Shown in pieces: positions 35,976 through 40,473 of a stretch of DNA of 64,000 bases (position 1 is its first letter; each line of letters begins with the position of its first letter). The notes under the pieces are model-generated. The model saw nothing but the letters and a program-made list of their open reading frames with translations. It did not search any database and was not told the origin of the DNA. The DNA comes from a bacterium (GTDB lineage: Bacteria; Hinthialibacterota; Hinthialibacteria; Hinthialibacterales; Hinthialibacteraceae), in the NCBI GenBank assembly GCA_963663405.2, contig CAXXSM010000109.1, forward strand, positions 8,632 to 72,631, given 5' to 3'. Position numbers and translations under genes: made by a program.

Positions 35976-36296
35976 CTAGGCTGATACCTGCTTTAATACT
36001 TCATCAGAAATGGGAACGATTCGTTGATCTATCTGCTCTCCAATTGAGGATTTTGCGACTTTCAGGTCATATCGTTGTTGTAAATTAAGCCAGAGTTCCG
36101 GCCCGGTTTTAAAAAAACGGCCTAGACGCAACGCCATATCCGCCGTAATTCGTTGTGTATTATTGACAATAGCATTAACTCGCGCTGTTGACACATCCAA
36201 CTCGCACGCTAGTTTATTCTGACTCAAACCCAGTGGTTCCATAAATTCAGTTAAAAGAATACTCCCTGGGGTTACAGGCTCCAACTTTCTAGCCAT
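35976..36296 (-). CDS. higA: HigA antitoxin (HTH)
   Basis: PGSILLTEFMEPLGLSQNKLA...ITADMALRLGRFF..PELWLNLQ. Confidence 0.93.
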   Translation of the reverse strand: MARKLEPVTPGSILLTEFMEPLGLSQNKLACELDVSTARVNAIVNNTQRITADMALRLGRFFKTGPELWLNLQQRYDLKVAKSSIGEQIDQRIVPISDEVLKQVSA

Positions 36297-36309
36297 AATT
36301 CATCGCCTT

Positions 36310-36588
36310 TCAGTGGTAATCACAAATCTCCACATCAAACGCGTCATGGTCTTTCCATGTAAAACAGATTCTCCATTGATCGTTGATACGTATACTACAT
36401 TGCCCTTTTCGAGAACCCTTCAGGTTCTCAAGCCGGTTGCCAGGTATTGCACGAAGCACATCTAGACTGGTTGAGGCATTAAGTAATTCCAATTTTTTTC
36501 TAGCTGGTACAGCGATAGATCGAAAACGTTTTACATCTTCGTCGTCGAATAATCGCTCTGTCTCTTTGCACTTAAAGGTCTTAATCAT
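36310..36588 (-). CDS. higB: HigB toxin (RelE-like, plasmid maintenance killer)
   Basis: MIKTFKCKETERLF...PGNRLENLKG..GQCSIRINDQWRICF..DVEICDYH. Confidence 0.94.
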   Translation of the reverse strand: MIKTFKCKETERLFDDEDVKRFRSIAVPARKKLELLNASTSLDVLRAIPGNRLENLKGSRKGQCSIRINDQWRICFTWKDHDAFDVEICDYH

Positions 36589-36700: not shown

Positions 36701-38161
36701 TCATTCATCCCCAATAATCTCCCGCAGTTTAGGAATCATCTCTTCACGGGGAATGGTTTGTTGGCCGGTTTTCCCGGATTTTCTGTATTCATCCCGATCG
36801 CTGATATCCGCCCGTTTCTCTTTGCCAGCGACCAAATCTTTGATTGAGATCTGATTGGATTCCAGTTCGTCGGAACCTACGATAATCGCGGCGGGGATAT
36901 TCTTGTGATTGGCGTAGGCTAATTGATCGCTCATCTTGGCTTTCCGTTTGCCAAGATAGATCTCCGCTGAAATGTTGTTATCCCGCAATTCACGCGCGAT
37001 TTTCAGCAATTCGGTCATGGGCACGCCTCGCATTGTGATGATTAAGACTTTCGTCGTCGTCGGCTCTGTATCGATTTTCCCGATGGCATTTAATCCCGCC
37101 AACAACCGGTCAAGGCCGATGGAGACACCCGTCGCGGGGATTGGGTCAGGCATGAATCGTTCAACCAAGTGATCGTACCGTCCACCACCCATGATGGAAC
37201 CGACCTGTGGCGCTCCGGGAAGAATCGTCTCGTACACCGGGCCTGTATAATAATCAAGACCGCGGGCGAGGCTGGGCAAGAAAACCACTTCGTCTTCTCC
37301 CACGCCAAGGCTGTCCAATGCGGCGGCCAGTTCTTTCATTTCATCAATTGCGGTATGTGTGCATTCCGCGTCAGGCAAGACCTTACCAACCGTTTCCAAA
37401 ACCGACGCCCGAGTTTCTGAAGAAATGGCGATAAATTCGAGGATTTTATCGATTGTGCCGCTTTCCAGCCCCACTCCACGAATCGGATCACCCGATTCAT
37501 CAACACGGCCTTCGCCTAATTCCTTCCGAATGTTGTCTAAGCCAACTTTGTCCAGTTTATCGACGACGCGCAGAACATGCTTTCTCGTCTCTTCACCATC
37601 GATATTGGATGCGATCAAGAGCGCGTCCATTAACCCGCGGCTGTTTACACGAATCTGATATTCACCATCGCTCAATCCCAAGTCACGCAGGACATCACAC
37701 ATGGCCGCAATGATTTCAGCGTCGATCACAACCGATTTGGATCCCGCCGCGTCGATATCAAATTGCGTAAACTGGCGGAACCGGCCGGGACCGGGTTTAT
37801 CCGCGCGGAACACGGGTCCAATGTGATAGCGCCGGAAAGGCAATTTCACCGTATCGGGATACTGCGCCAAAATACGCGCGAAGGGAACGGTCAGATCGAA
37901 ACGCATGCCAATCGGTTCCCGTTCCGGGCTTTCCAGCCGGAAAATCTCTTTATTGATCTCCTCGCCACCGGTTCCAATTAACGTGACGAGGTATTCAAGA
38001 ATCGGCGTATCGATCGGCACGAAACCGTATCGCTCGTACACATTGCGTATCACCTCAATGACGCGATTGCGGGCGATCATCTCCTCCGGAAGATAATCAC
38101 AGAATCCTTTTAAAGTTTGAGGTTGAACGAATCCCTTTGCTTGTTCCGGACTTTGAGTCAT
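36701..38161 (-). CDS. hisS: Histidyl-tRNA synthetase (non-canonical, alphaproteobacterial-like type)
   Basis: RFDLTVPFAR, motif 2 FRADKPGPGRFRQFTQFDID, LARGLDYYTG, GGGRYD, GVSIGLDRL. Confidence 0.96.
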   Translation of the reverse strand: MTQSPEQAKGFVQPQTLKGFCDYLPEEMIARNRVIEVIRNVYERYGFVPIDTPILEYLVTLIGTGGEEINKEIFRLESPEREPIGMRFDLTVPFARILAQYPDTVKLPFRRYHIGPVFRADKPGPGRFRQFTQFDIDAAGSKSVVIDAEIIAAMCDVLRDLGLSDGEYQIRVNSRGLMDALLIASNIDGEETRKHVLRVVDKLDKVGLDNIRKELGEGRVDESGDPIRGVGLESGTIDKILEFIAISSETRASVLETVGKVLPDAECTHTAIDEMKELAAALDSLGVGEDEVVFLPSLARGLDYYTGPVYETILPGAPQVGSIMGGGRYDHLVERFMPDPIPATGVSIGLDRLLAGLNAIGKIDTEPTTTKVLIITMRGVPMTELLKIARELRDNNISAEIYLGKRKAKMSDQLAYANHKNIPAAIIVGSDELESNQISIKDLVAGKEKRADISDRDEYRKSGKTGQQTIPREEMIPKLREIIGDE

Positions 38162-38228
38162 GAAAAGCGTCCTCCTGCGCTGTTTTCTCTAATAAAACTG
38201 CTGTTACATTAATTCACTGATAGAGTTT

Positions 38229-38373
38229 TTTGTCTGAATCAGGATGGCCAAGATTTAAAGGATGGCCAGGATAATTTGCACTTTATTGAGGGATATTTCA
38301 TGAAAATGAGAGTCACTATAATGATTCCTATCCTGCGAATCCTAATCATCCTGGGTATCCAGATTCAGACAAA
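38229..38373. repeat. MITE-like element with terminal inverted repeats and 9-nt periodic ggat units
   Basis: tttgtctgaatcaggat... at the left end and ...atccagattcagacaaa at the right end; four ggat/agat or atcc units per arm at 9-nt period. Confidence 0.7.
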
Positions 38374-38520
38374 GATATCTCTCTTGTTTCATCTGTAATA
38401 TACTATTTCCGTACGTATTCGCGTAACCTCAATTATAATAATGCCGTCCGTGTCAATCGCGAGAACCAACCCGAATGGGTGATTCCTTTATCTTAATCGT
38501 ACAAACGGTAAATGGAAAAA

Positions 38521-38598
38521 TGGTACCGGGAACGGGACTTGAACCCATGACCTCCTGATCCACAGTCAGGCGCTCTAAACCAACTGAGCTATCCCGGC
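38521..38598 (-). tRNA. tRNA-His(GUG), copy 2 (no G-1; A73)
   Basis: GCCGGGA TA GCTC AGTTGGTTTA GAGC G CCTGA CT-GTG-GA TCAGG AGGTC ATGGG TTCAAGT CCCGT TCCCGGT A CCA. Confidence 0.96.
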
Positions 38599-38628: not shown

Positions 38629-38706
38629 TGGTACCGGGAACGGGACTTGAACCCATGACCTCCTGATCCACAGTCAGGCGCTCTAAACCAACTGAGCTAT
38701 CCCGGC
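38629..38706 (-). tRNA. tRNA-His(GUG), copy 1 (no G-1; A73)
   Basis: Identical 78-nt cloverleaf, separated from copy 2 by 30 nt. Confidence 0.96.
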
Positions 38707-38723
38707 ACATTGACTATCTATTC

Positions 38724-38752
38724 ATAATACGCCAGCCACAAGCAACTGGCAA
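38724..38752 (-). promoter_or_regulatory. Sigma70 promoter for the tRNA-His pair
   Basis: TTGCCA-17 nt-TATTAT on the minus strand, 17 nt upstream of tRNA copy 1. Confidence 0.7.
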
Positions 38753-38780: not shown

Positions 38781-39587
38781 CTAATCAATAATCCAATCGA
38801 TTCGATTAATATCATACAAACGCTGAGAACATTTCCACCATTCCTTAACAATAGAAACCTTCTCTTCTTTGGATAGGTTTGAAACGCTTAACCTTTGCGA
38901 ATACCACGTCTTTTTTTCAAATTTTTTCTTAGTAAGACGATTCACAATAGGAATCAAAGACAAATCGCCTTCCTCTACTTTCACAATCAAGCTAGGCAAT
39001 ATACAAATGCCCAGGTTTTGCATTTTTTTTATTACCGTTTCATCTTTCTTGCTTTTATATTCTTCATAAAAAAAATTAAATAGTTGAATATCTTCTAAAT
39101 ATCCATGTTCCCACCAATCAATTTGACTTTGCGCCCTGCCATTCCCATTACTATAGTATTCATCCGAAAATACCTTTTGTGACATACTTTCACAAACGAT
39201 TGTGTACAATACCATCTTGCTTGGAGGAAATTGAATTATAAACTGGTTTGAAGTAATCTCACCCTTTTTCAATTCAACTTTAAGCATTTCAATGATGTAT
39301 GGAATGATCTGTACTCCACAATCAACCATACGCTTATAACTGTCCAATCCATGTAGATATGGATAGTAGTCCGAATAGGGATGGTCTTCCTCTACTTCAT
39401 CGACATCCTTAACCCAGGCTTCAACGAGAGATTTAACATTTTCTTTTGTTTGAAGGACGTCTTTACATTCATTACTCGTTTCTAAAACATTTGTACGAGT
39501 ATCATCGTCAAGTTTCTCTCCCGTATTGCAACCCAATACGAATACAGAAAGACAAATGAAAATGAATATAAAATTTATGTTATTCAT
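38781..39587 (-). CDS. AT-rich hypothetical lipoprotein
   Basis: MNNINFIFIFICLSVFVLG-C lipobox; start overlaps the hisG stop; about 30% GC. Confidence 0.7.
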   Translation of the reverse strand: MNNINFIFIFICLSVFVLGCNTGEKLDDDTRTNVLETSNECKDVLQTKENVKSLVEAWVKDVDEVEEDHPYSDYYPYLHGLDSYKRMVDCGVQIIPYIIEMLKVELKKGEITSNQFIIQFPPSKMVLYTIVCESMSQKVFSDEYYSNGNGRAQSQIDWWEHGYLEDIQLFNFFYEEYKSKKDETVIKKMQNLGICILPSLIVKVEEGDLSLIPIVNRLTKKKFEKKTWYSQRLSVSNLSKEEKVSIVKEWWKCSQRLYDINRIDWIID

Positions 39588-40473
39588 ACAGCATCTCAAC
39601 CGCCGCCACCGAAATTTTCTTCGCATGATTCCGAATTAGAATCGGAATGATATCTTTAATCGACGAACGGTCCGCGATGGCTTCGAATAGAAACTCCCCA
39701 TTATTATCCGGACAGACGGTGTATTGCGCCGCGTTGGATTTCAATGTCTCGATCAATGCGTCTATGTTGTCTTTGCCGGCGGAGAAGCGAATACTGTCTT
39801 TTCCCTCCGCTTTCAAACAACTAGCCAGCAGGAGAGAAATATCATTCATCTTCCGCCGCTTCCATTCATCTTCCATATAAACAGGCTTGTTCGCAAAAAA
39901 GCGCGTGGTCGATTCGGTCACGGTTTCTACGATTCGCAGTTTATTCGCCTTTAATGAAGATCCTGTCTCTGTACATTCAACGATCGCATCGGCGAAAAAG
40001 GGCGCTTTTGCTTCCGTCGCTCCCCAGGAGAACATCACATCAGCGATGATCCCCTTCTTCGAAAGCCAATCTTCTGTCACCGCGCGCAATTCCGTTGAGA
40101 TCCGCACGGGTTGTTTCACGTTTTTCAGGTCCTGCACTTCATAGACTGGAGAATCTTCCGGCACCGCCAATACCCAGCGCACCGGCCGGAAACTGCGCTT
40201 CGAATAACATAAATCCGTCAACAGTTTAATTTCTCCATCGCACCGGTTTTCAAGAATCCAATCCCATCCGGCGAGACCGCAATCAAGGTTTCCTTTCGCG
40301 ACGTAATTCGGGATTTCCTGCGGGCGCAGCAACACGGGTTTCAATTCCGCGTCATTGGAATCAAGCCAGAGCGAACGCTCCGAACCCCATAACTTAATCC
40401 CCGCTTTCGCAAAAAGCGCAATCGTGGATTGTTCGAGACTTCCCTTCGGAATCCCAATTAACAACTGTTTCAT
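39580..40473 (-). CDS. hisG: ATP phosphoribosyltransferase, long form
   Basis: IGIPKGSL, LLRPQEIP, DCGLAGWDW, FSWGATEAK, DAIVECTETGSSLKANKL. Confidence 0.93.
   Translation of the reverse strand: MKQLLIGIPKGSLEQSTIALFAKAGIKLWGSERSLWLDSNDAELKPVLLRPQEIPNYVAKGNLDCGLAGWDWILENRCDGEIKLLTDLCYSKRSFRPVRWVLAVPEDSPVYEVQDLKNVKQPVRISTELRAVTEDWLSKKGIIADVMFSWGATEAKAPFFADAIVECTETGSSLKANKLRIVETVTESTTRFFANKPVYMEDEWKRRKMNDISLLLASCLKAEGKDSIRFSAGKDNIDALIETLKSNAAQYTVCPDNNGEFLFEAIADRSSIKDIIPILIRNHAKKISVAAVEMLYE

Follow-up and report, generated by a model that had tools for sequence, protein, structure and literature searches.

A histidyl-tRNA synthetase of the G-1-independent clade and matching tRNA-His genes in a bacterium outside the alphaproteobacteria

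The guanosine at position -1 (G-1) of tRNA-His is among the most conserved identity marks of tRNAs. We analysed a 64,000-nucleotide stretch of a Hinthialibacterota genome (contig CAXXSM010000109.1; this whole stretch is called the window below), which carries on its minus strand a gene for histidyl-tRNA synthetase (HisRS), hisS, and two tRNA-His genes that encode no G-1. We conclude, with a probability of about 0.85, that this enzyme and these tRNAs constitute the housekeeping histidine-charging system of the organism and that the system is of the G-1-independent kind. The pair lies outside the alphaproteobacterial group with which published work identifies the trait.

The HisRS of Caulobacter charges a tRNA-His that lacks G-1 (Yuan et al. 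2011, PMC3064791). Passages of PMC3064791 and PMC3937112 on the range of this delta-G-1 system list the Rhizobiales, Rhodobacterales, Caulobacterales, Parvularculales and most of SAR11, with Caulobacter crescentus as the characterised case, and a passage of the latter paper (Ardell group 2014) calls the trait a synapomorphy of likely single origin. In the relevant sections of PMC3064791 and of a 2023 review of tRNA identity (PMC9976931), the bacterial system is attributed only to 'some' alphaproteobacteria, protists being the other exception, and the corresponding sections of a 2019 review (PMC6471195) and of Mukai 2017 (PMC5370408, PMC5389517) draw the same boundary. Reports of a G-1-less system in other bacterial phyla were not found in the open full-text literature, a body of work that leaves most subscription papers outside. 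The host of the window is not alphaproteobacterial. Its RpoB (contig C70) is 81-83% identical to proteins from metagenome-assembled genomes (MAGs) labelled Candidatus Omnitrophota or Candidatus Hinthialibacter sp. and ~56% identical to those of Nitrospirota, and the NCBI taxonomy places Hinthialibacter in its own candidate phylum.

Both tRNA-His(GTG) genes are detected by ARAGORN and by Rfam (70.9 bits each) and lie on the minus strand. The copy proximal to hisS (38521..38598) has A at position -1, and the distal copy (38629..38706), which is identical in sequence, has T there; neither encodes G-1. The acceptor stem, read directly from the sequence, is GCCGGGA/UCCCGGU, in which G1 pairs with U72, and it is followed in both copies by the discriminator A73 and an encoded CCA. 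The D-loop (AGUUGGUUUA) has 10 nt, and G37 is present in the anticodon loop CUGUGGA. An enlarged D-loop is not diagnostic alone, because 9-nt D-loops also occur in some canonical tRNA-His of relatives. The end of the proximal tRNA gene lies 359 nt from the hisS start codon on the same strand. An Rfam scan of the region returned, besides the two tRNAs, only a sub-threshold YrlA match that overlaps them.

The hisS gene (36701..38161, minus strand) encodes a full-length protein of 486 amino acids, which is assigned as a histidine--tRNA ligase of the G-1-independent (delta-G-1) clade from its open reading frame (ORF), its match to TIGR00442 (383 bits; cut-off 286.75) and its position in the tree described below. 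Pfam matches to tRNA-synt_His and HGTP_anticodon are present. When 80 HisRS sequences are aligned, the motif-2 loop of the window enzyme (residues 119-131, RADKPGPGRFRQF; 37769..37807, minus strand) reads FRADKPGPGRFRQF, with Gly at the site of the canonical Gln. Its core, KPGPGRFRQF, is identical to that of five of six alphaproteobacterial references from the RRCH group (Rhizobiales and Rhodobacterales, all taken from records filed as plasmids), and the sixth, Ruegeria, reads KPGPGRYRQF. The full loops are FRNEKPGPGRFRQF or WRNEKPGPGRFRQF in Sinorhizobium, Shinella, Methylobacterium, Paracoccus and Cereibacter, and WRNEKPGPGRYRQF in Ruegeria. The Gln-to-Gly exchange is thus written RNEKPGPGRFRQF in five of the six references and RNEKPGPGRYRQF in Ruegeria, versus RHERPQKGRYRQF in E. 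coli, whose loop is FRHERPQKGRYRQF (core RPQKGRYRQF); the Bacteroides loop is WRADRPQKGRYREF.

Two insertions accompany this exchange. A segment of the insertion domain (residues 216-232, GEGRVDESGDPIRGVGL; 37466..37516, minus strand) includes an insert of ~12 amino acids specific to the clade, which the window group shares with a Bryobacterales group and the RRCH alphaproteobacteria and which is missing in Bacteroides, Vescimonas and Haladaptatus; E. coli-type enzymes are not alignable there. Farther along, a segment beginning KDLVAG starts at residue 441, and MAFFT gap placement puts a second insert, of ~19 amino acids, at residues 460-478 (36728..36784, minus strand) in the C-terminal anticodon-binding domain. 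This second insert is common to the same three groups and is missing in all eight other references shown (Bacteroides, Vescimonas, Paraclostridium, Haladaptatus, Paceibacterota, E. coli, Listeria and Sphingomonas), and it matches the anticodon-binding-domain insert named by Yuan et al. (PMC3064791). A sequence-only reading of this region had described a motif-2 loop devoid of the Gln linked to C73, an insertion, a KDLVAG segment towards the C-terminus and atypical tRNA-His genes close to hisS. These descriptions are borne out: Gly occupies the Gln site (RADKPGPGRFRQF versus FRHERPQKGRYRQF in E. coli), both inserts are real in comparison with the eight references of other groups, and the tRNAs have no G-1, a G1:U72 pair and A73, the nearer one 359 nt away.

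In canonical enzymes, according to Tian et al. 2015 (PMC4357726), G-1 is received by a pocket made of a Gly-Gly dipeptide, for which Caulobacter has two aspartates. At this position the window enzyme has Glu-Arg, the RRCH references have Asp-Asp and canonical enzymes have Gly-Gly or Asn-Gly, in a stretch of the alignment that contains indels; Gly-Gly or Gly-Asp is found in Listeria, in Sphingomonas and in the canonical-type relatives of the window. Overall, the window HisRS is ~25% identical to canonical enzymes of the E. coli/T. thermophilus type.

A HisRS phylogeny had been proposed as the check on these assignments, and it does not place the window enzyme with canonical G-1/C73-dependent HisRS. 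The careful tree (IQ-TREE, LG+C20+F+G4 by posterior mean site frequencies) holds 58 of 99 rows and a quick tree 54 of 80, after fragments shorter than 400 amino acids were dropped and near-duplicates thinned; neither includes Caulobacter, cyanobacterial or eukaryotic sequences. The window enzyme and the RRCH alphaproteobacteria fall within one 35-row clade supported by an ultrafast bootstrap of 99 and a Shimodaira-Hasegawa-like approximate likelihood ratio test (SH-aLRT) of 99, and recovered in 100% of 200 bootstrap trees; the quick tree agrees (SH-aLRT 99 for the same clade). Its members are the window group, a Bryobacterales/Acidobacteriota group, four relatives from family f3 of the host phylum and the six RRCH references, while HisRS of Bacteroidota, Clostridia, a haloarchaeon, the candidate phyla radiation and the E. 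coli type lie outside. The window enzyme is not inside the alphaproteobacterial branch. It belongs to a separate sister subclade of 21 rows (support 100/99), which spans several phyla, and the alphaproteobacteria, Bryobacterales and f3 relatives are joined weakly (80/84 and 88/88). Labels of other members of the 35-row clade are Hydrogenedentota, Omnitrophota, Verrucomicrobiota, Planctomycetota, Nitrospirota, Abditibacteriota, Sumerlaeota and two Actinomycetota MAGs; these are given as deposited, and some are doubtful, for example a 7.9 Mb bin labelled Akkermansia muciniphila. A single clade for the window-type HisRS of the host phylum, a group named post hoc, is not rejected by the approximately unbiased test (p = 0.057).

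The window pair is the housekeeping histidine system of its genome and not a second, orthogonal pair. The genome (170 contigs, 8.44 Mb, 82% complete, 2.4% contamination) contains one hisS above the cut-off, the window copy, and among the 42 tRNAs that ARAGORN detects genome-wide, the only tRNA-His genes are the two window copies. These are the only hisS and tRNA-His found in the genome, and therefore we regard them as the housekeeping pair rather than an extra one. A 657-amino-acid ORF elsewhere (G000:C132:281664-282701) gives two weak sub-threshold matches to the hisS model, at 33 bits each.

Enzyme and tRNA types also change together within the host phylum. Among 35 phylum genomes, including that of the window (G000), tRNA-His was located in 31 by means of a covariance model and two BLAST queries followed by ARAGORN typing. 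The model (R1) is not specific for tRNA-His, as many tRNA-Arg, tRNA-Asp and tRNA-Val reach 70-80 bits, and therefore tRNAs were typed by ARAGORN and by BLAST with a canonical tRNA-His. Four genomes (G026, G041, G045 and G050) yielded no tRNA-His. HisRS identity to the window enzyme is 60-67% in G045, G052, G028 and G051, 48-49% in G047-G050 of family f3 and at most 39% in all other phylum genomes, except that no HisRS was found in G031. A tRNA-His with G1:U72 and A73 that lacks G-1 occurs in seven genomes (G000, G028, G047, G048, G049, G051 and G052), all seven with a HisRS at least 48% identical to that of the window. Of the 24 genomes whose tRNA-His has G at -1 and C73, 23 encode a HisRS that is no more than 39% identical, and the 24th is G031. 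No mixed combination of enzyme and tRNA was seen among the 31 typed genomes, which, as relatives, are non-independent samples; no statistic was defined on the covariation.

The distribution is a mosaic even within the family of the window, where 16 of 20 genomes are canonical and G-1-less tRNA-His is found only in the window genome and G028; G045 has the matching HisRS type, and its tRNA-His was not found. RpoB is 78-83% identical across the 19 other family members and gives no resolution of sister genera. Motif-2 loops in the G-1-less genomes read KPGPGR or KPDPGR, and those in canonical genomes carry Gln (ERAQKGR, ERPQEGR or ERKQKGR), with the exception of G027 (GPIKAGR). The phylum also holds at least four further HisRS lineages (G029, G032, G043, G027 and G053-G058; loci L137-L147), all with canonical tRNA-His: an E. 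coli/Listeria-like, an Embleya-like and an f6 type, and a long-branch type with the GPIKAGR loop, which resembles a plasmid HisRS of Bacillus cereus.

Similar pairs are found well beyond the phylum. In loci from named species genomes, a tRNA-His lies directly upstream of hisS on the same strand in 12 of 60 cases. All 12 of these tRNAs have A73, 10 have G1:U72 and two have G at -1; the two G1:C72 cases come from MAGs labelled Actinomycetota, and one locus (L009) has a truncated tRNA-His copy at the contig end. Another 14 genomes with a window-clade HisRS carry tRNA-His that is not adjacent to hisS, in every case with G1:U72 and A73 and in one with G at -1, such that the pooled tRNA-His genes from outside the phylum have A73 in 26/26 and G1:U72 in 24/26. 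In metagenomes, 73 of 80 loci include 300 nt or more of upstream sequence, and a same-strand tRNA-His lies within 600 nt in 39 of these 73; some duplicate the genome loci. The 41 tRNA-His copies recovered there have U72 in 37 and a base other than G at -1 in 37, while position 73 is A in 35, U in five and C in one, and the combination of G-1 with C73 occurs in none of the 41. By comparison, no same-strand tRNA-His is found directly upstream of hisS at the 21 loci of other HisRS types of the phylum (L137-L157, ~1.5 kb flanks). The commonest base at -1 is T. Bacterial RNase P prefers U at -1, which would fit ordinary cleavage at +1.

In the alphaproteobacteria, the tRNA-His of Sinorhizobium has T at -1, G1:U72, A73 and CCA, an acceptor end as in the window. 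This gene was found with covariance model R1, after two IUPAC pattern searches for tRNA-His on Rhizobiales and Rhodobacterales records had given no match; a BLAST search with the window tRNA was discarded, its matches being tRNA-Phe, tRNA-Met, tRNA-Thr and tRNA-Gly, and no tRNA-His was located in the Paracoccus record. The loop core, both inserts, the 99/99 clade and this Sinorhizobium-like acceptor end together uphold the earlier description of the window enzyme as a HisRS of the Caulobacter/Rhizobium type.

Two side observations were made during this survey. A MAG labelled Bifidobacteriaceae (G023; L050, L108, L123) has a canonical G-1/C73 tRNA-His on one contig and, on another, a tRNA-His with A73, G1:C72 and G at -1 adjoining a window-clade hisS, which points to a cell with two histidine systems or else to a mixed bin. 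Two Bryobacterales genomes (G013 and G018; L121, L122) carry tRNAs with a CAU anticodon that have G1:U72 and A73, like their tRNA-His.

The recognition mode of the window pair, its independence of G-1 and its orthogonality to E. coli can be inferred from the biochemistry of the Caulobacter enzyme. In that system, U72 is a major identity element, and a U72C change causes a 91-fold loss and anticodon changes a 91- to 1000-fold loss, whereas A73C costs 3-fold and an added G-1 5-fold (PMC3064791, Table 1); the insert in the anticodon-binding domain is named there as the likely basis of anticodon discrimination. By analogy, we propose that the two tRNA-His genes would be transcribed, probably together with hisS, and that RNase P would cut at the normal +1 position, leaving a mature tRNA that starts at G1. 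This tRNA would have an ordinary 7-bp acceptor stem with G1:U72 on top, followed by A73. The HisRS, in which the loop Gln and, as aligned, the Gly-Gly pocket serving G-1:C73 in canonical enzymes are missing and which has an extra segment in its anticodon-binding domain, would then read the GUG anticodon and U72 in place of G-1.

Several points weigh against this interpretation. The proposed mode of charging is carried over from Caulobacter to an enzyme that is 36-41% identical to the RRCH references, and Caulobacter itself is missing from the tree. The sequence markers are also imperfect. The loop Gln is not an absolute marker, because G027, a relative with canonical tRNA-His, does not have it and reads FRDGPIKAGRFREF, and the Gly-Gly pocket is a weak test, because several G-1-using 'type-2' HisRS (the Bacteroides/Clostridia type) also do not have it. 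On the tRNA side, G is present at -1 in 3/26 of the genes from outside the phylum and in 4/41 metagenome copies, and A73 is a soft feature of the subclade, being replaced by U73 or C73 in the closest metagenome relatives (65-70% HisRS identity). The loci concerned (L231, L232, L233 and L288) have U73, with C73 in one tandem copy, and keep G1:U72 and the absence of G-1; tandem tRNA-His pairs occur in L232 and L288, and the copies of L288 differ only at position 73. By analogy, a variable discriminator fits the Caulobacter kinetics (A73C 3-fold versus U72C 91-fold). Finally, at 82% completeness a second hisS or tRNA-His could lie unassembled.

This last point leads to the alternative that the pair is an accessory, mobile and orthogonal one, with the canonical hisS and tRNA-His missing from the bin or the contig mis-binned, which we consider unlikely. 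Apart from the incomplete assembly, it would draw on the HigB/HigA module directly downstream, the element resembling a miniature inverted-repeat transposable element (MITE) beside the cassette, the canonical tRNA-His in 16 of the 19 other genomes of the family and the Bifidobacteriaceae-labelled MAG with both systems. However, the genome yielded no second hisS or tRNA-His, and G028, G045, G051 and G052, which have HisRS identities of 60-67% and are 90-96% complete, each give a single HisRS match. A canonical tRNA-His query detects no canonical gene in those four, its one match being a tRNA-Gly in G052. Moreover, the GC content at third codon positions of hisS (56%) equals that of its neighbours (55-56%), and the repeat family of the tRNA-hisS spacer recurs on numerous contigs of this bin, linking the contig to the rest of the genome.

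A different possibility is that, as in eukaryotes, G-1 is placed opposite A73 by a guanylyltransferase once the tRNA has been transcribed, and that the HisRS is still G-1-dependent. A73 without an encoded G-1 is indeed the eukaryotic gene layout as well (PMC3064791), and human cytoplasmic HisRS (212 bits) is, with 3net and 6nhi, among the best PDB sequence matches of the window enzyme (210-218 bits, versus ~107-115 bits for E. coli and Thermus, with E. coli at ~115). The guanylyltransferase family Thg1 (PF04446) has no match in the 82%-complete window genome, where 13 candidates were scored, and none in G028, G045, G047 and G052 (91-96% complete), which are four of the five relatives with the pair. 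The fifth, G051, does have two Thg1-family genes (C998:141-533 and C722:4773-5177), in a MAG of 1260 contigs with 7% contamination. In addition, U72, the key delta-G-1 element, is present, the Gly-Gly pocket, as aligned, is not, and the enzyme groups at 99/99 with the RRCH enzymes, whose tested member Caulobacter is G-1-independent, though missing from the tree. Post-transcriptional addition therefore appears very improbable. The chance is similarly slight that G-1 was lost in parallel, with an unrelated enzyme solution. The 36-41% identity to the RRCH enzymes would allow for this, and PMC5370408 mentions an existing suggestion of convergence for the alphaproteobacterial system relative to eukaryotes, but the loop decapeptide is identical to that of five of the six RRCH references, the two inserts are common to both groups at the same positions, and the enzymes form a single clade at 99/99 in 100% of the 200 bootstrap trees. 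A housekeeping system of the G-1-independent kind thus remains the preferred reading.

The locus also links the pair to histidine biosynthesis. Upstream of the tRNAs lies hisG (39580..40473, minus strand), a long-form ATP phosphoribosyltransferase (TIGR00070, 152 bits, plus a HisG C-terminal domain). The identity pattern of hisG tracks that of hisS across the phylum: HisG is 66% identical to the window protein in G045, 64% in G028, 62% in G052 and 66% (a fragment) in G051, versus 44-53% in all other phylum genomes, although RpoB is 78-83% identical across the family. In G052 the genes form a compact single-strand block (hisG, 14 nt, tRNA-His, 75 nt, hisS), and in the f3 genomes tRNA-His directly follows hisG, with hisS elsewhere. 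Among the 54 metagenome loci with 1300 nt or more of upstream sequence, 10 have the three genes in a row. More than 100 HisG relatives at 50-81% identity are present in the protein database, including one at 52% from a named Bryobacterales isolate, and we infer that 23 of the 119 listed share an assembly with a listed HisRS relative.

Relative to such blocks, the window layout reads as one that has grown through a low-GC ORF, the duplication of the tRNA and a MITE-like repeat. The ORF (38781..39626, minus strand; 281 amino acids, no Pfam family) lies between hisG and the tRNAs, overlaps the hisG 3' end by 47 nt and has a GC content of 34.5% versus 46.9% for the genome. It is missing in the compact hisG-tRNA-hisS blocks of G052, L231, L232, L233 and L288 and is probably a foreign insertion into the ancestral compact block. 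The repeat (38226..38375), identified by BLAST of the spacer against the genome, is palindromic, ~150 nt long and dispersed, with dozens of copies of 70-95% identity. The spacer was also considered as a regulatory leader, as it folds well (z = -3.8), and this was rejected given that ~150 of its 359 nt are the dispersed repeat. A sigma-70-like promoter match (TTGCCA-17-TATTAT; 38724..38752, minus strand) upstream of the distal tRNA rests on consensus and is not significant by itself, the promoter scan of the region giving three sites versus 6.6 expected in shuffles. The minus strand shows no terminator-like site in the interval from the tRNAs to hisS, and judged by sequence, co-transcription of tRNA-His and hisS is plausible. 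Directly downstream of hisS (35976-36588, minus strand) are genes for a HigB-like toxin (92 amino acids) and a helix-turn-helix antitoxin (HigA, 106 amino acids).

Within the phylum, the pair together with hisG behaves as a linked module, with several swaps with the canonical system in either direction. The mosaic within one family and one phylum argues for several replacements of the whole identity pair, whichever state is ancestral. A broader hypothesis, to which we give somewhat less than even odds, is that the hisG-tRNA-His-hisS block is a transferable 'identity-swap' module that has taken G-1-independent histidine identity into many phyla and has repeatedly displaced the G-1:C73 system, even among genera of one family. 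The RRCH system, regarded in the literature as a unique invention made in place and as a clade marker, would then be one offshoot of this wider, laterally moving clade. The sequence-only reading had raised the possibility that synthetase and tRNAs were transferred together and had called for a survey of their synteny. That possibility is strengthened by the covariation of types in 31 of 31 typed genomes and by the frequent adjacency of the genes (12/60 genome loci and 39/73 metagenome loci). Its description of an orthogonal pair holds in part, in that enzyme and tRNAs are of one self-consistent type; they are nevertheless the sole pair of their genome and would be orthogonal only relative to, for example, E. 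coli, by analogy with PMC3064791. The use it foresaw in genetic code expansion is not a new idea, as the Caulobacter pair was already proposed for that purpose as an orthogonal pair in E. coli (PMC3064791). What the present data offer is a wider choice of candidate HisRS/tRNA-His pairs with possible orthogonality in that host. They also argue that the trait is laterally mobile and not a safe clade marker, which reopens the origin of the alphaproteobacterial system. Because close relatives differ in system while enzyme and tRNA types switch together, these genomes form a natural series for studying how cells survive the replacement of an essential tRNA identity rule.

Compared with known systems, the window pair resembles the canonical G-1:C73 system (E. 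coli and T. thermophilus; complex 4RDX), which most of its own family uses, in its TIGR00442 match, class IIa fold elements and GUG anticodon, but it has no G-1, C73 or loop Gln and, as aligned, no Gly-Gly pocket. With eukaryotic and protist tRNA-His it has in common A73 and a gene without G-1, and the HisRS of Trypanosoma brucei and Acanthamoeba castellanii are described in PMC4338351 and PMC3561963 as G-1-independent as well; unlike Thg1-dependent eukaryotes, the window genome has no Thg1 match, and the comparison of HisRS rests on PDB scores. The differences from the RRCH system are a host outside the alphaproteobacteria, an enzyme in a separate multi-phylum subclade, a loop prefix of RAD versus RNE, a Glu-Arg pocket versus Asp-Asp, and a discriminator that varies (A, U or C) among the closest relatives of the window. 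The gene order also differs, as the window tRNA-His is linked to hisS and hisG whereas that of Sinorhizobium, the one alphaproteobacterial record in which tRNA-His was located, is ~75 kb from hisS; in Ruegeria and Cereibacter, the gene after hisS is hisZ. Nevertheless, it is the RRCH system that the window pair matches in the tRNA, with no encoded G-1, G1:U72, A73, an enlarged D-loop (9 nt with U20a in the RRCH tRNA) and G37; in the enzyme, with Gly for the loop Gln (KPGPGRFRQF), inserts in both the insertion domain and the anticodon-binding domain and membership of one 99/99 clade; and in having no Thg1.

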